A stretch of 64,000 bases of DNA, from NCBI GenBank assembly GCA_041483895.1, contig JBGPGO010000015.1, forward strand, positions 6,526 through 70,525. The letters are read 5' to 3'. Of this stretch, positions 6,441 to 46,846 are shown piece after piece (position 1 is the stretch's first letter; every line of letters starts with the position of its first letter). This stretch comes from Fimbriimonadia bacterium (lineage in GTDB: Bacteria > Armatimonadota > Fimbriimonadia > Fimbriimonadales > JABRVX01). Made by a program: the position numbers and the translations under genes. Below the pieces are notes generated by a model that saw only the letters and a program-made list of their open reading frames with translations, searched no databases and had not been told where the DNA came from.

Positions 6441-6578
6441 TTTTGTCTCCTTTGACCGTCAATAGCCAAATCTTACCCGGCTAAGGGAGGCATAAGTGGA
6501 GGCAGACGCTCGCAAACCGGGACCAGGATATCCCTTGATCCCTCGGCAGGCCCGACGCAGACTGCTGGATAGCGGAAC

Positions 6579-7397: not shown

Positions 7398-7473
7398 GGG
7401 GGTGTAGCTCAGCTGGGAGAGCGCTGCAATCGCACTGCAGAGGTCGTGGGTTCGAATCCCATCATCTCCACCA
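7398..7473 (+). tRNA. tRNA-Ala (anticodon CGC)
   Basis: 76-nt cloverleaf. Acceptor GGGGGTG/CATCTCC with the G3:U70 Ala identity pair; D-arm GCTC-AGCTGGGA-GAGC; anticodon loop ATCGCAC; T-arm GTGGG-TTCGAAT-CCCAT; encoded CCA. Confidence 0.9.
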
Positions 7474-17469: not shown

Positions 17470-17545
17470 TGCCGGATAGCTCAATTGGCAGAGCACCTGA
17501 CTCTGGATCAGGAGGTTCTAGGTTCGAGCCCTAGTCCGGCAGCCA
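17470..17545 (+). tRNA. tRNA-Gln (anticodon CTG)
   Basis: 76 nt. Acceptor TGCCGGA/TCCGGCA (U1:A72); anticodon loop CTCTGGA; T-arm CTAGG-TTCGAGC-CCTAG; discriminator G; encoded CCA. Confidence 0.9.
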
Positions 17546-39122: not shown

Positions 39123-41633
39123 ATGCACGACCCAACCCTGATCGCCATACAACAAATCACAAAATTCTACGGCGGCGTGACCGCCTTGGGCGCCGTCTCC
39201 TTCGAAATCGCCAAAGGCGAGGTCCATGCCCTCTGTGGGGAAAACGGAGCCGGAAAATCGACGCTGAACAAGATACTCTCCGGGTCCCTCTTGCCCGACA
39301 GCGGGGAGATAACGGTGGAAAATCGCCCATTGCCAATGGGCAGCGTCCAGGCGTGCCAGGATAGGGGCATCAGCATCGTTCACCAGGAATCCACCGCATT
39401 CCTTCATCTCAACGCGATAGACAATATCTTTGTGGGCCGCGAGCTGACCGCGCCGGGGTGGGGGTTCTTCCGCAAGCTCTCCCTCCCCTTTGCGAGGAAC
39501 GAGCAAGGGGGAGGGGTGGGGTGGGGGTTCTTCCTCGATCGGCGGCAAATGGAACGAAAGACCCGCGAACTGATGCTGCGTCTCGGAGAAAGCCTCCCCA
39601 TCGACGTCCCCCTCCTCAACCTCACGACGGCGCAGCGTCAGATGGTCTCCATCGCCCGCGCGTTGGCTCGCGACTGCCGCCTGCTCATCATGGATGAACC
39701 GACCTCCTCCCTTTCCGCCAAGGAATCGGCGGCGCTCTTCCGCATCGTGCGTCAGCTAAGGTCCGAGGGCGTGAGCATCTTGTGGGTGACCCACCGCCTA
39801 GACGAGGTTTTCGAGCTGGCGGACCGAGTGACGGTTCTTCGAGACGGGAAATATGTCGGAACTCGGTCCATCGGCGAACTGGACCGAGCAGAGCTGATCC
39901 GGATGATGGTGGGTAGGGAGATGGCGACCATCACTGCTAGAGAATCCAACCCCGCCGAGATCGCGCTCACCGTAAAAGGGTTGAGCGGCCCGGCCTTCCA
40001 AGACGTTAACCTGACGGTGCGCGCTGGAGAGATCGTGGCGCTGGCGGGACTGGTAGGCGCCGGGCGCAGCGAGCTGGCCCGCGCGATCGCCGGCATCGAT
40101 TCCTATGACGCAGGAACGATCGAGGCCGAAGGGCGCGCGATATCCTACGTCCCGGAAGACCGGCAACACCAGGGCCTCGCGCTCCCCATGTCGATACGCG
40201 AGAACCTAACTCTGAGCGTTTTGCCTCGCATCGCCCCGCGGCATCTCCTCATTCGCGCAAGAGAGAATCAGGTCGCGCAACAGTATATGCAGGAGCTCGA
40301 CATACGCGCCGATTCGACTGCCCGCCCGGTCGAATCACTCTCAGGAGGCAACCAACAAAAGGTGCTCCTCGGCAAGTGGCTTGCCACCGATCCGCAAATC
40401 CTCATTCTCGACGAACCTACCCGTGGAATCGATGTCGGCGCGAAGGCAGAAATCCACCGTCACATTCGCGCGCTGGCCGACCGGGGCGTCGCTATTCTGC
40501 TTATCTCGTCGGAAATGCCGGAGGTGCTCGATCTCGCCGACCGCATCATCGTCCTCCGCGAGGGCCAAGTCGCCGGGGAGCTTTCCCGCAGCGAGGCAAC
40601 GCAGGAGAAACTTCTCGCTCTCTCCCTCCCCGACGAATCGGCGGAACAGAAAGCCGTCCAATCCAAAGAACCAATAGTCGACCGGTTGGCGCGGCAACGA
40701 GAGATCGGCGTCGGCGCCCTGGTGGCCCTCACGCTGATCGTCGTTTCCCTCGTCAACCCTCGCTTCCTTTCCATCGAAAACCTCCGCGATCTTCTCATCA
40801 ACGCGGCCCCAATCGCAATCGCCGCATGCGGAATGACGCTCGTAATCCTCGCCCGAGAAATCGATATCAGCATCGGCTCGCTGATGGGACTCAGCGCGGC
40901 GATTATGGGCATCATCGCCTCGCCGACGCGCATGGGCGGATCGGTGCCGCTCAGCATCGCGCTCGCGCTAGCCACCGGCCTGTCTATCGGCCTCCTCAAC
41001 GGAGCGCTGGTCGCCGTGGGCCGCGTTCCTTCCATCATCGTAACGCTCGGCATGCTGACTATCCTTCGCGGCGGTACTGATCTGCTGATGCGCGGGCAAT
41101 GGATCACCGACATCCCGCCCGGGCTTCGCGTGCTCGGAACGGGCTCCGTTCTGGGCGTGCCGATCAGCCTTTGGACCGCCGCGATCTGCCTGATATGCAC
41201 GGGATGGCTGCTCGCCCGCACCGCGCTCGGCCGCAGGATTGTCGCGCTCGGTTCCAACCCCCAGGCGGCTGTCTACGCGGGCATCTCCCCTACCCGAATC
41301 CGTCTGTTTGTATTTGCGTGCAGCGGTCTGCTAACGGCGATCGCGACGCTCGTTAGCGTTACGCGCCTATCCACCATCGAATCCGGAATCGGCGTCGGAT
41401 TTGAGCTGCTGGTCGTAACTTGCGTCGTGGTCGGCGGCACCTCGATTCGCGGCGGCCAAGGCAGCGTGCTCGGCTCCTTCTTCGGCACGTTGCTGCTCGG
41501 CAGCGTGGCGACCATGCTGATCTTCCTACGCCTGGGCGAGATGTCCACATACTGGGAAAGGGCGATCCAGGGAGCGTTTATCTTGGCGGCGGTGATGATG
41601 GACAACCTCGCGCGGCGGCGGGCGAAATCGTGA
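39123..41633 (+). CDS. sugar ABC transporter, fused ATPase (two NBDs) + permease
   Basis: Single 836-aa ORF. NBD1: GENGAGKST. NBD2: LSGGNQQKVLLGKWL, ILDEPTRGIDVGAK. Then an RbsC/AraH-like TM domain (GMTLVILAREIDISIGS...). Confidence 0.88.
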   Translation: MHDPTLIAIQQITKFYGGVTALGAVSFEIAKGEVHALCGENGAGKSTLNKILSGSLLPDSGEITVENRPLPMGSVQACQDRGISIVHQESTAFLHLNAIDNIFVGRELTAPGWGFFRKLSLPFARNEQGGGVGWGFFLDRRQMERKTRELMLRLGESLPIDVPLLNLTTAQRQMVSIARALARDCRLLIMDEPTSSLSAKESAALFRIVRQLRSEGVSILWVTHRLDEVFELADRVTVLRDGKYVGTRSIGELDRAELIRMMVGREMATITARESNPAEIALTVKGLSGPAFQDVNLTVRAGEIVALAGLVGAGRSELARAIAGIDSYDAGTIEAEGRAISYVPEDRQHQGLALPMSIRENLTLSVLPRIAPRHLLIRARENQVAQQYMQELDIRADSTARPVESLSGGNQQKVLLGKWLATDPQILILDEPTRGIDVGAKAEIHRHIRALADRGVAILLISSEMPEVLDLADRIIVLREGQVAGELSRSEATQEKLLALSLPDESAEQKAVQSKEPIVDRLARQREIGVGALVALTLIVVSLVNPRFLSIENLRDLLINAAPIAIAACGMTLVILAREIDISIGSLMGLSAAIMGIIASPTRMGGSVPLSIALALATGLSIGLLNGALVAVGRVPSIIVTLGMLTILRGGTDLLMRGQWITDIPPGLRVLGTGSVLGVPISLWTAAICLICTGWLLARTALGRRIVALGSNPQAAVYAGISPTRIRLFVFACSGLLTAIATLVSVTRLSTIESGIGVGFELLVVTCVVVGGTSIRGGQGSVLGSFFGTLLLGSVATMLIFLRLGEMSTYWERAIQGAFILAAVMMDNLARRRAKS
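39455..39534 (+). repeat. GC-rich hairpin repeat element lying in frame inside the ABC ATPase gene
   Basis: The 17-bp direct repeat GGGGTGGGGGTTCTTCC occurs at 39455-39471 and 39518-39534, exactly 63 bp (21 codons) apart. Between the copies is the hairpin CCCTCCCCTTTGC-N9-GCAAGGGGGAGGG. The G-rich arm plus TGGGGGTTCTTC recurs at 45935-45977 on the opposite strand. Confidence 0.75.
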
Positions 41634-42548: not shown

Positions 42549-43553
42549 ATGAAACGTTGTTGCGCACTGATTCTGCTGATCGCCCTGATCGGCTGTGGTC
42601 CCAAATCGGAAGACAAGGCGTCGTCCGACGGCGGCAAGAAGATTGTCATCGCCCTGCTGCCCAAAAAGAAGGGTGTTCCCTACTTTACCAGTTGCGACAA
42701 AGGCGCTGAGGAGGCCGCAAAGGAGCTGGGCGACGTGGAGCTGATCTACGACGGCCCGACGGACGGTTCACCAGAAAAGGCGGCCTCGATGATCGAGCAG
42801 TGGACCCTTAAGAAGGTAGACGTGATCGCGGTCTCGCCAAACGACGCCAGCGTGGTCGGTCCGGCAATGAAGGCGGCCCGCGCGAAGGGCATCCACGTTA
42901 TCACTTGGGACGCCGACGCGGCGCGGGATACGAGAGAAATGATGGTCAACCAAGGCACCGCCAAAGAGATCGGATACAAGCTGGTAGACGTGATGGCCCA
43001 AGACCTGGGTGGGGACGGGGCCTCCGGAGATGTGGCAATCGTCACGGCGGCAATTACCGCGCCAAACCAGACCGAATGGATCAAGTACATGAAGGAGCGA
43101 TTGCCAAACTATCCCGGGCTGAAGCTGGTCGATGTCAAGGCCTCGAACGAGGATCAGAAGCTCGCCTTTACCGTCACGCAGGACCTGATGAAGGCCTACC
43201 CAAACATCAAAGGGATTTTCGCCATCAGCTCCACGGCGTTCCCCGGCGCGGCGGAAGCCATCAAGCAGAGCGGGATGAGCGGCAAAGTGATGGTCACCGG
43301 CCTATCCACACCAAATGACATGCGCCAAGCGGTGAAGGACGGAACTGTCAAGTCGGTCGTGCTATGGAAGACCGAGGACCTCGGTTATCTGACCGTCATG
43401 GTAGCCCATGCGCTGGCAAAAGGCGATCTGACGCCCGAAGCCACAACATTCCACGCAGGCCGCCTGGGCGACCGGAAAATCGAGGGAGACAACGTTCTGC
43501 TGGGGGACCTGTTGGTGTTCACGAAGGACAATATAGACAACTATAAGTTCTGA
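42549..43553 (+). CDS. periplasmic sugar-binding lipoprotein (RbsB/RhaS/LsrB-like)
   Basis: Lipoprotein signal LILLIALIGC. KKIVIALLPKKKGVPYF, VDVIAVSPND and ITWDAD fit the type I periplasmic binding fold. Confidence 0.88.
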   Translation: MKRCCALILLIALIGCGPKSEDKASSDGGKKIVIALLPKKKGVPYFTSCDKGAEEAAKELGDVELIYDGPTDGSPEKAASMIEQWTLKKVDVIAVSPNDASVVGPAMKAARAKGIHVITWDADAARDTREMMVNQGTAKEIGYKLVDVMAQDLGGDGASGDVAIVTAAITAPNQTEWIKYMKERLPNYPGLKLVDVKASNEDQKLAFTVTQDLMKAYPNIKGIFAISSTAFPGAAEAIKQSGMSGKVMVTGLSTPNDMRQAVKDGTVKSVVLWKTEDLGYLTVMVAHALAKGDLTPEATTFHAGRLGDRKIEGDNVLLGDLLVFTKDNIDNYKF

Positions 43554-44683: not shown

Positions 44684-45784
44684 ATGAATGCGATGATTGT
44701 TGCGCTCGGGGTCGCCGCGATGGCGAACGCGAACGGAGGGGAGCTTTGGGGAATTATGCCTGACGGAAAGCTTGCTCACATGTACTCTTTGGACAACGGA
44801 ACCGGTTTGCGAGCGAAGATCACAGACTATGGCGCCACGCTCGTAAGCCTGGAATCAAAAGACCGGGCGGGCACATTCACCGATATCGTTCTCGGCTTCA
44901 ACGAGCTGGACCAGTATCGGAAGGATTCGCCCTATTTCGGCGCCATCGTCGGCCGGTACGGGAACCGGATCGCTCATGGAAGGTTCCGATTGGACGGCAA
45001 GGAGTACAAGCTCGCCACAAACAACAACCCCGGCGAAATCCCGTGCAGCCTGCACGGCGGCAACATCGGCTTCGACAAGGTTCTCTGGACCGCAAAAGAG
45101 ATTGGCAAAAACGCCCTGCAGCTGACATACGTGAGCAAGGATGGCGAGGAGGGCTATCCGGGCACGCTGAAAGTTACGGTCACCTACACACTGACACCTG
45201 CGAATGCCCTTCGCATCGAGTACAAAGCGACCGCAGATAGGGCCACGCCGATCAACCTCACTCATCACAGCTACTTCAACCTGAAGGGAGAAGGCGACGG
45301 CGACATTCTCGACCATGAGCTGATGCTGAACGCCAAGAAGATGACGCCGATAGACATTGGGTTGATCCCAACCGGAAGCATCACTTCGGTCAAGGGTACA
45401 CCGTTCGACTTCACATCGCCGCACCGGATTGGTGAACGCGTGGAAGCCAAGAACAAGCAGATTGAATATGGCAAGGGCTATGACCACAATTGGGTGATCA
45501 ATGGCGCGCCGGGCAAGATTCGTTTGGCCGCGAGGGCAAGCGAACCCAATTCCGGCCGCGTCATGGAAGTCTGGACCGACCAACCGGGCATCCAGTTCTA
45601 TTGCGGCAACTTCTTGGACGGCAAGATCGGCAAATCCGCCAAGCCCTATCCGTTCCGCAGCGGCTTCTGCCTGGAGACCCAGCACTATCCCGATTCGCCC
45701 AACCACAAGAACTTTCCGTCAACGATTCTGCGTCCGGGAAAGACCTACCACACCGTTACAGAGTATCGATTTTCTGCGAAATAA
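44684..45784 (+). CDS. galM: aldose 1-epimerase (galactose mutarotase)
   Basis: GAIVGRYGNRIAHGRFRLDGKEYKL..NN....LHGG..GFDKVLW and NLTHHSYFNL motifs. Signal-like N-terminus. Confidence 0.9.
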   Translation: MNAMIVALGVAAMANANGGELWGIMPDGKLAHMYSLDNGTGLRAKITDYGATLVSLESKDRAGTFTDIVLGFNELDQYRKDSPYFGAIVGRYGNRIAHGRFRLDGKEYKLATNNNPGEIPCSLHGGNIGFDKVLWTAKEIGKNALQLTYVSKDGEEGYPGTLKVTVTYTLTPANALRIEYKATADRATPINLTHHSYFNLKGEGDGDILDHELMLNAKKMTPIDIGLIPTGSITSVKGTPFDFTSPHRIGERVEAKNKQIEYGKGYDHNWVINGAPGKIRLAARASEPNSGRVMEVWTDQPGIQFYCGNFLDGKIGKSAKPYPFRSGFCLETQHYPDSPNHKNFPSTILRPGKTYHTVTEYRFSAK

Positions 45785-45934
45785 TCGATCGCTATCGGAA
45801 TCGGCCCTCTTCCCCCTTCGGCAATCCCGGCGGATGGCGTTCTTGTTGGGGCGGGCCGCCCTTTGGGGGAGGAGCATCCTTTACGCCGGGATTCGGCTCG
45901 CCACAGCCCATCAGGAAGGTGAGGAAGAAGAGTA

Positions 45935-45984
45935 GAAGAACCCCCACCCTCACCCTCCCCCGCAAGCGGGGGAGGGGATATTTT
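45935..45984 (+). terminator. rho-independent terminator-like hairpin; second copy of the GC-rich repeat
   Basis: CCCTCCCCCG-CAAG-CGGGGGAGGG (45953-45976), followed by GATATTTTAATAAT. It is preceded by GAAGAACCCCCACCCTCA, the reverse complement of the motif at 39518-39534. Confidence 0.6.
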
Positions 45985-46021
45985 AATAATGACGATCGCA
46001 TCGTCAAGCGCCTCGAGTACC

Positions 46022-46846
46022 TCACGTCCTCCCCCAAAACTTGCCCCACGGCAAATGGCCCTTCGTCTCCAGCCATGTGCAGTACGAATCCCACGTCGGC
46101 GCCTCGTTCCAATCCACGAAATCGGCCCGCTTGATCTTCCCAGCGCTGCCATCCGCGCGCGCGACAGGGATCGAATCGCCCGCGTAGGAAAAGCGCGTGT
46201 CCCAGATCAGGTTGTACCAACTCCACGTGCCGGCAGTCTTGGACGGATCGAGCCAGTTGGATTGATAGGCGCGAATGTAGTACCAACCCACGTTCGTGCC
46301 GCCCCAAATGGTGGGAACGAACGCCACCCGTTGGGATATATCCTCCAGCTTGCTCAGCTTGCGACCATAGATAAACCGCCAATTTCCGCCCCGGCACCCG
46401 CCGTCCGTAACCCAAGATCCGGCGAAACCTGAATCGTTGATCGCGAAGGTCGTGATCTGCGACCAGTGGTAACTGCCATACGTGTCCTGTTTCAGCACCA
46501 ACCGCGTCGGGTCCCAGAAAATGTCGCGGCTCTTGGCATACGGGGTGAGCAACTCGGACCAGATCGGATGCTGGAACCAATTCGTGTCCGTGATCACGAT
46601 GCCGTCGTTGTTGTCACCGGCGTATAGATGGTTGGCCAACCCTACTTGCTTGATCTGTGCCAGAGCCGCTGTCGTCCGCCCGCTCTTCCGCGCCATCCCA
46701 AAGACGGGAAAAAGGATCGCCGCCAACAGCGCGATAATGCCGATCACCACTAACAGTTCGATGAGAGTGAAGCCTTTGCGGCGTTGGTTTACCGCGATAC
46801 TATGCCGCCACATATCGTTGGTGTCTTTTGCCATATCAATGATCAT
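46022..46846 (-). CDS. prepilin-type N-terminal methylation domain protein (DUF1559-like)
   Basis: RKGFTLIELLVVIGIIALLAAILFPVF, followed by a DUF1559-type region (..NHLYAGDNNDG..). Confidence 0.85.
   Translation of the reverse strand: MIIDMAKDTNDMWRHSIAVNQRRKGFTLIELLVVIGIIALLAAILFPVFGMARKSGRTTAALAQIKQVGLANHLYAGDNNDGIVITDTNWFQHPIWSELLTPYAKSRDIFWDPTRLVLKQDTYGSYHWSQITTFAINDSGFAGSWVTDGGCRGGNWRFIYGRKLSKLEDISQRVAFVPTIWGGTNVGWYYIRAYQSNWLDPSKTAGTWSWYNLIWDTRFSYAGDSIPVARADGSAGKIKRADFVDWNEAPTWDSYCTWLETKGHLPWGKFWGRT

Follow-up and report, generated by a model that had tools for sequence, protein, structure and literature searches.

A 21-codon in-frame insert in an ABC transporter gene of a Fimbriimonadia bacterium, probably derived from a triplex-motif repeat

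We analysed 64,000 nucleotides of contig JBGPGO010000015.1 from a Fimbriimonadia bacterium (positions 6,526 to 70,525 of the forward strand), referred to as the window in the following. One of its genes encodes a fused ATP-binding cassette (ABC) protein that carries 21 residues not found in any of the aligned homologues. As judged from the sequence, this insert is probably one copy of a repeat of the BoxC/PIT/TM_ECO class, a group of intrastrand triplex motifs, plus an extra copy of the repeat's own 3' tail. Three points are new with respect to the published motifs: the intragenic, translated location, a variant in which G co-varies in place of A, and the spread beyond the Proteobacteria.

The insert and its two modules in the window

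The product of the host gene (Table 1) contains two ABC_tran domains and a BPD_transp_2 domain (Pfam), i.e. two nucleotide-binding domains (NBD1 and NBD2) fused to a permease. This fused ATPase-permease layout is common to more than 100 of the best homologues, which are 800-900 aa long. In a search of 5.8 billion proteins, the nearest other protein was 57-58% identical; the closest named relatives come from Armatimonadota, Fimbriimonadaceae, Planctomycetota and Sumerlaeota and show 52-59% identity. An alignment covering residues 1-260 of the 119 best homologues showed a 22-column gap exactly at the insert in every homologue that aligns across the region, which bears out the statement in an earlier note on this DNA that relatives have a shorter stretch here. 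The same note had pointed to an equivalent loop in distant orthologues as evidence against an insertion, and none of the aligned homologues has one. The insert is flanked on one side by the conserved (F/V)GRE motif and on the other by the helix (L/I)DRxxM...LG, which precedes the signature motif. Among the homologues, the loop from GRE to LDR differs in length by about 5-8 residues, so the site appears to be permissive.

The reading frame is free of stop codons through the insert and continues normally behind it (...GRELTAPGWGFFRKLSLPFARNEQGGGVGWGFFLDRRQMERKTRELMLRLG..., i.e. ...GRELTAPGWGFF-RKLSLPFARNEQGGGVGWGFF-LDRRQMERK...). Since there is no stop in frame, the insert should be translated, giving a stretch rich in Gly, Trp, Phe and Pro. 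The gene has gained a net 63 nt or 21 codons, a multiple of three as noted earlier, and the homologues lack 21-22 residues. Two exact copies of a 17-nt direct repeat start 63 nt from each other and enclose a hairpin with arms of 13 nt each, which form 12 Watson-Crick pairs and one G-T pair. Repeat, hairpin and open frame had all been described before and were found again at the same places (Table 1). With up to three mismatches allowed, the 64-kb window contains three matches to GGGGTGGGGGTTCTTCC against 0.25 expected, a count that none of 100 shuffles reached; the third match is located at 45934-45950 on the minus strand.

Upstream of the 5' repeat copy there is no further hairpin, and the conserved GRE-coding sequence abuts directly. 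The internal hairpin is the sole inverted repeat within 39300-39700. Tandem Repeats Finder (TRF) reported a GGGGT micro-repeat at 39508-26 and called no 63-nt period at the insert. The flanks beyond the first and the second repeat do not continue the unit, and the structure is therefore no simple tandem duplication. The 9-nt spacer GCAAGCTCT, which joins the 5' repeat copy to the hairpin, looks element-derived, because TTCTTC..CGCAAG likewise follows the tail on its 3' side in two Mesorhizobium copies (L055 and L065).

A second copy of the module is located in the gap between two convergent genes. It accounts for the earlier observation that the G-rich arm plus TGGGGGTTC recurs intergenically: over GGGGGAGGG-NNN-GGGTGGGGGTTCTTC, 24 of 27 positions are identical to the genic copy, and the shared part corresponds to a purine arm with its mirror third strand. 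The neighbourhood of this copy shows some features of its own. Its hairpin, followed by GATATTTTAA, has a terminator-like score on the plus strand (45953-45985), just 3' of the aldose 1-epimerase gene. A sigma-70-like promoter match is found nearby on the minus strand (46007-45980), and the module adjoins a gene (46022-46846, minus strand) for a protein with a prepilin-type N-terminal methylation motif. GTAG occurs beside the copy at 45932-35, which may be chance.

Table 1. Positions of the features in the window and of related modules at other loci
Feature	Position	Strand	Remarks
Host gene	39123-41633	+	836-aa fused ABC protein, NBD1-NBD2 ATPase and BPD_transp_2 permease; sugar-uptake operon
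5' copy of 17-nt direct repeat GGGGTGGGGGTTCTTCC	39455-39471	+	holds second copy of third-strand block GGGTGGGGG; encodes G112-W-G-F-F116
21 extra codons, R117-F137 RKLSLPFARNEQGGGVGWGFF (equivalently G112-V132)	39471-39533	+	absent from all aligned homologues
Spacer GCAAGCTCT	39472-39480	+	from 5' repeat copy to hairpin
C-rich hairpin arm CCCTCCCCTTTGC	39481-39493	+	39481-39489 is the pyrimidine domain CCCTCCCCT
Hairpin loop GAGGAACGA	39494-39502	+	9 nt
G-rich hairpin arm GCAAGGGGGAGGG	39503-39515	+	39507-39515 is the purine domain GGGGGAGGG
Loop 2 (GTG) and putative reverse-Hoogsteen third-strand domain GGGTGGGGG	39516-39527	+	third block at 39519-27
3' copy of 17-nt direct repeat	39518-39534	+	encodes G133-W-G-F-F137; native LDRR... 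resumes at 39534/5
Second module copy	45935-45976	-	CCCTCCCCC-GCTTGC-GGGGGAGGG-TGA-GGGTGGGGG-TTCTTC
AceE (pyruvate dehydrogenase E1)	L106		in frame; about 12 extra residues relative to the E. coli enzyme
PurL-like protein	L027		insert inside AIRS_C domain; peptide SLPLAGGGPGWGF; same frame as SLPF...GGGVGWGF of the window
MrpA/NuoL-like antiporter subunit	L109		opposite orientation
MutS	L063		insert directly before domain V
HNH/MrfA-type protein	L077		in frame
Tyrosine-integrase-like protein (by motifs)	L228		in frame
Homologous fused ABC protein	L037		module doublet in ATPase-permease linker
Arrays with 42-nt period	L166:3006-3155, L169:6532-6597, L178:7354-7419, L184:13374-13439, L183, L195		
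Families with class I order	L118, L125, L129, L136, L140, L146, L151, L173, L174, L177, L222, L226, L230, L235; also L141, L152, L171, L175, L180, L223, L234		

Relationship to the intrastrand triplex motifs

TM_ECO is a G/C-rich intrastrand triplex motif whose previous names were BoxC and, later, PIT element (Holder et al. 2015, PMC4666352, where preceding studies of Maher's group and the original description of BoxC are cited). Its pattern is 5'-CCCTCNCCC N3-6 GGGNGAGGG N3 GGGNGAGGG-3', with TTA or CCG as loop 2, and 3610 copies were reported from 262 proteobacterial genomes. As single-stranded DNA the motif folds into a very stable triplex of class II (purine motif), as seen by circular dichroism and nuclear magnetic resonance, with melting temperatures of 70-82 °C. 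A polymerase stops directly in front of it. In E. coli MG1655 it is 'always located intergenically'; it marks hypervariable loci in E. coli and displays no association with known mobile elements (all PMC4666352).

Both copies in the window have the three 9-nt blocks of this class in the same strand order, pyrimidine - purine - mirror. The third block GGGTGGGGG mirrors GGGGGAGGG, A being faced by T, and 9 of 9 positions give permitted triads in either copy (G.G:C, T.A:T or A.A:T, at most one mismatch in 9 being allowed). The mirror block could thereby occupy the hairpin's groove and serve as a third strand, held by G.G:C and T.A:T triads. Loop 2 has 3 nt in both cases (GTG in the genic copy, TGA in the intergenic one), a length shared by 159 of 218 high-scoring modules. 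The sequence of the pyrimidine arm is almost that of TM_ECO (CCCTCNCCC with N = C), and loop 1 of the intergenic copy measures 6 nt.

To search other genomes we used the pattern GGAGGGNNNGGGTGGGGGTTC and one genome per species. It matched at least 117 genome loci, often with several copies per genome. According to the record titles, the matches come from Alpha-, Beta-, Gamma- and Deltaproteobacteria, Chloroflexi/Anaerolineae, Tepidisphaeraceae/Phycisphaerales, Armatimonadota, Bacteroidetes and others. The earlier note had named the absence of further copies in the genome as an argument against a repeat element; such copies do exist, in the window as well as in many other genomes. In nearly all listed matches the complementary arm (C/T)TCCCTCCCCC is found a few bases upstream, although it was absent from the search pattern, and the unit is therefore a hairpin with a G-rich tail. 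In the window copy the core of the family reads CCCTCCCC(T) - loop - GGGGGAGGG - GTG - GGGTGGGGG. Some modules stand alone, and others form inverted doublets (tail to tail, 27-61 nt apart), are fully palindromic or follow each other in direct tandem arrays; local tandem copies are frequent (L055, L085, L103, L166, L169, L178, L184). Like TM_ECO, the module is thus multi-copy, present as singles and inverted pairs, and tied to local rearrangement and tandem copies.

The third block follows the purine arm in its variation (GGGGGAAGG/GGATGGGGG, GGGAGAGGG/GGGTGAGGG, GGAGAGGGG/GGGGTGAGG). The triad score was determined for 536 pyrimidine/purine hairpins from the retrieved loci and has a bimodal distribution: one peak, the background, is at 4-5 and the other at 8-9; 218 of the hairpins reach at least 8 of 9 mirror triads, mostly after a 3-nt loop. 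We also permuted the partners of 96 hairpins that have a G-rich 9-mer on their 3' side and were not chosen by the scan pattern. The mean triad score was 8.21 with the own partner and 6.86 +/- 0.11 with permuted ones (maximum 7.34 in 2000 permutations), a result that is supportive and carries no formal probability, because copies within a genome are related. Loop 2 is chiefly TTG, TTA, TCG, CCG or CTG across the family, of the YYR type and matching the types known from E. coli.

Several observations weigh against the assignment. Neither copy agrees with the literal TM_ECO consensus, since the third block has G and not A at position 6 (GGGTGGGGG in place of GGGNGAGGG). Loop 1 of the genic copy comprises 17 nt (4 extra bp and the 9-nt loop) versus 3-6 nt in the consensus. 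The G-blocks could equally form a G-quadruplex, as predicted by ViennaRNA, and a stable triplex was not detected in vivo in E. coli (PMC4666352). The junction of tail, spacer and hairpin, TTCTTCCGCAAGCTCTCCCTCC, has 0 matches in metagenomes, and no donor or sister copy was found there. A close relative in which the empty site might be seen is not among the homologues either, the next one being at most 58% identical.

The deviation in the third block can be explained: it compensates for position 4 of the purine arm, where A is likewise replaced by G, so that a G.G:C triad replaces A.A:T. As the literal consensus is missed in the third block of both copies and in loop 1 of the genic one, we file the module as a variant of the triplex-motif class and not under the E. 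coli family proper. It differs from the latter also by the longer hairpin and the extra 5' tail of the genic copy, by its presence in Chloroflexi, Planctomycetota, Armatimonadota and others, whereas TM_ECO was described from Proteobacteria, and by the location of the genic copy inside a gene and in frame, whereas the copies of E. coli MG1655, like the second copy in the window, are intergenic. We also considered whether the 5' tail copy belongs to a class I triplex and discarded this idea, since its blocks come in the wrong order (tail - pyrimidine - purine); true class I relatives with the order tail - purine - pyrimidine exist in metagenomes.

No Rfam family covers the module: an E-value scan of 39300-39700, gathering-threshold scans of 18 related loci and a further scan of the whole window returned just tRNAs and sub-threshold noise. 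A literature search with sequence strings (GGGTGGGGGTTC and similar) gave chance matches only, namely primers of eukaryotic studies. With only 14 matches among the viral contigs of IMG/VR, there is no sign of carriage by phages.

Origin of the direct repeat and mode of insertion

The 17-nt repeat contains the conserved third block of the family and TTCTTCC. It cannot be an ordinary duplicated target, because it contains the element's own third block. Among 205 perfect modules, a sample enriched for tail-hairpin-tail layouts as a second scan had selected for them, 185 have no upstream copy of the third block, 17 have one within a plain tandem array and three have a lone copy (the window, L228 and L147). 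The longest repeats flanking about 150 modules measure 4-9 nt, which is background level; the window copy and two true tandem arrays are the exceptions. At L228:1379-1438, a genic insertion in frame, we found the order third-strand block, TTCTTCT, hairpin, third-strand block, with a 12-nt direct repeat 48 nt apart.

We infer that the arrangement tail-spacer-hairpin-tail was either copied from a tandem or dimeric donor or arose by a microhomology-driven duplication of the tail. A polymerase would stall at the hairpin, triplex or G-quadruplex, and template switching or break repair would then copy from another, probably tandem, copy of the module. The 17-nt direct repeat would be the footprint of that event, and no dedicated transposase would be the source of the insertion. 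This sequence of events fits because a polymerase stop and instability are documented at such motifs; a transposase fits less well. With the hairpin enclosed by the repeat pair, slippage should also delete the 63 nt precisely, and comparatively often.

Insertion by a transposase would make the insert a non-autonomous element, such as a MITE (miniature inverted-repeat transposable element) or a member of the repetitive extragenic palindromic (REP)/REPIN type, and the 17-nt repeat its target-site duplication. We consider this unlikely. It is true that 46 foreign nt stand between perfect direct repeats, and the module shares with MITEs that it is small, non-coding, multi-copy and sometimes fused in frame to genes; in some lineages (Desulfobacterales, Tepidisphaeraceae) it even lies inside longer units with terminal inverted repeats. 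However, terminal inverted repeats are missing from the window copies, the supposed duplication holds the third-strand block conserved in the family, and 17 bp exceeds the usual length of target duplications. A family-wide target-site duplication has to be rejected in view of the 185 modules without a flanking block copy. The resemblance to REP/REPIN elements, which are mobilised by RAYT/TnpA_REP, lies in the short GC-rich hairpins, the mostly extragenic location and the frequent inverted doublets, which we saw in other genomes and not in the 64-kb window. In contrast to REPs, the genic copy does not have the conserved GTAG/CGTC tag at its ends, and while REP families are lineage-specific, the module is nearly identical across phyla and possesses a third, mirror-repeat block. 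The E. coli study, too, saw no association with mobile elements (PMC4666352). The earlier suggestion of a mobile or recombinogenic MITE- or REP-like repeat is therefore upheld insofar as a dispersed GC-rich repeat entered the gene, and is not supported as regards membership in the MITEs, given the missing terminal inverted repeats and the lack of a family-wide duplication.

It seems very improbable that the insert is skipped, be it by ribosomal bypass between the identical 17-nt repeats as take-off and landing sites or by frequent precise excision that would restore the ancestral protein. The identical repeats bracket a strong predicted hairpin or G-quadruplex, and this layout is reminiscent of gene 60 in phage T4 and of the byp elements of mitochondria. 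Palindromes enclosed by direct repeats are also classical hotspots of precise deletion. Bypass would nevertheless be unnecessary, since no stop follows the take-off codon and the insert is open in frame; furthermore, other genic copies do not have such repeats.

That the 63 nt represent an assembly or binning artefact of a metagenome-assembled genome (MAG), i.e. a repeat-induced chimera, is hardly credible. The protein is known from a single NCBI contig (93 kb) and the repeat family is multi-copy, but the shared repeat has just 17 nt, which is below the k-mer sizes commonly used by assemblers. The insert is also exactly in frame and stop-free, and analogous in-frame copies exist in independent assemblies and complete genomes.

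A lineage-specific loop that arose by local slippage or duplication of native sequence, with a coincidental resemblance to modules elsewhere, is equally implausible and appears effectively refuted by the evidence from the family: the GRE-LDR loop does vary in length and G-runs such as the GGGGT micro-repeat are prone to slippage, but the 46 nt between the repeats are not copied from neighbouring gene sequence, they match the intergenic copy as described above, and the three-block module occurs at numerous unrelated loci, so the pure slippage duplication considered in the earlier note is excluded, these 46 nt being foreign and belonging to the family.

In-frame copies in other genes and possible consequences

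In the first scan, 27 of 125 modules are traversed by a stop-free frame that extends for 80 or more open codons to either side, although many of these frames may be spurious in GC-rich DNA. Several of them are clearly genuine genes that carry the module in frame (Table 1). Genic modules use both orientations and more than one frame. In the homologous fused ABC protein (L037, a Tepidisphaeraceae MAG), the inverted doublet PSSCTQGEGRGGGS ... PDPHPTPPPEYKGRE occupies residues ~505-580 of an 887-aa stop-to-stop frame. Stop-free intergenic repeats might have aided the fusion of ATPase and permease genes, as at this locus. Fused homologues with two NBDs and a permease were found mainly in MAGs of Armatimonadota or Planctomycetota type.

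A comparable behaviour is known from Rickettsia palindromic elements, short palindromes that are inserted in frame in unrelated housekeeping genes and translated, and that seem compatible with fold and function of the host protein (PMC10969869). The likeness concerns the behaviour only, that is, the translated in-frame insertion. These elements are ~150 bp long, restricted to Rickettsia, encode a conserved peptide and show no three-block triplex-type architecture (PMC10969869). The module described here, in contrast, has ~45-63 nt, is G/C-rich, occurs across phyla and is read in several frames and both orientations.

How the host protein might accommodate the insert was examined with an AlphaFold2 model built from 53 aligned sequences (mean predicted local distance difference test, pLDDT, 90.6; predicted template modelling score, pTM, 0.85). 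The pLDDT drops at residues 111-140 alone, to 63/54/71 per ten-residue block, with flanking blocks at 91-97. Walker A, Q88 (Q-loop), the aspartate of Walker B together with its neighbour, the catalytic glutamate (D191-E192), and H224 (H-loop) fall in columns that are invariant in the alignment, the host protein included. The simplest reading of the model is that the insert would be tolerated as a disordered surface loop, in what is known as the structurally diverse region of the helical subdomain of ABC ATPases. Of the effects imagined in the earlier note, the additional surface loop is thus favoured by the model, and an inactivated NBD finds no support, as the catalytic motifs are all preserved.

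In the host gene, the sense strand is the G-rich one. Since RNA does not form triplexes of the purine motif (PMC4666352), the hairpin or a G-quadruplex is what counts in the mRNA. With G-quadruplex energies included, ViennaRNA predicted a four-tetrad quadruplex in GGGGGAGGGGUGGGGUGGGGG, with a minimum free energy of -98.8 versus -58.0 kcal/mol for the hairpin-only fold. The predicted hairpin or quadruplex might slow translation. A quadruplex repeat has reportedly been described in Xanthomonas and Nostoc.

Intrastrand triplex motifs have hitherto been regarded as intergenic curiosities of enterobacteria and a few other groups, and their link to genome instability has been statistical only. The genic cases, in the window and in other core genes and phyla, show that modules of the triplex type reach new sites de novo and are able to enter essential domains and to stay there as translated loops, a behaviour previously emblematic of Rickettsia palindromic elements. 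Comparisons of filled and empty sites in conserved proteins could expose the mechanism of insertion, and the host gene offers a natural test case for bacterial translation of an mRNA with a very strong predicted G-quadruplex or hairpin. Such inserts would also account for odd Gly/Trp/Pro-rich loops in proteins from MAGs, which would then be neither functional motifs nor frameshift errors. A bolder and decidedly improbable extension is that triplex-motif repeats are a cross-phylum class of 'selfish' DNA that is translated and has settled time and again in the loops of core proteins, with the present 21-codon insert acting as a reversible switch. If this were true, replication slippage could remove the insert precisely, or ribosomes could skip it between the matching sites, and a population would toggle between two forms or levels of the transporter.

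Further arrangements of triplex-type modules were noticed during the scans. Metagenome contigs contain long head-to-tail arrays of complete modules with a period of 42 nt, equal to 14 codons (CTCCCTCCCCTGGTACGGGGGAGGGCCGGGGTGGGGGTTCTG and variants, Table 1). Two further repeat families display the class I order, third strand - purine - pyrimidine (e.g. GGGGTGGGGGTTCTTGGGGAGGGG-loop-CCCCTCCCC). Each of them is surrounded by conserved flanks of tens of bases, which suggests longer elements or RNAs built on a triplex core. In Desulfobacterales (L005, L030, L043, L046, L050) and Tepidisphaeraceae (L004, L053, L071, L110), the triplex core is located mid-way in longer units. The terminal inverted repeats of these units are lineage-specific (TATACTGC...GGGCATAATC / GATTATGCCC...GCAGTATA; GGCCATGATTTTTTGC / GCAAAAATCTTTGGCC), giving the picture of MITE-like shells around a shared core.

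Downstream of the host gene follow a second permease gene and genes for a Peripla_BP_4 binding protein (42549-43553) and an aldose 1-epimerase (44684-45784). Elsewhere in the window, we found genes for tRNA-Ala(CGC) at 7398-7473 and tRNA-Gln(CTG) at 17470-17545.

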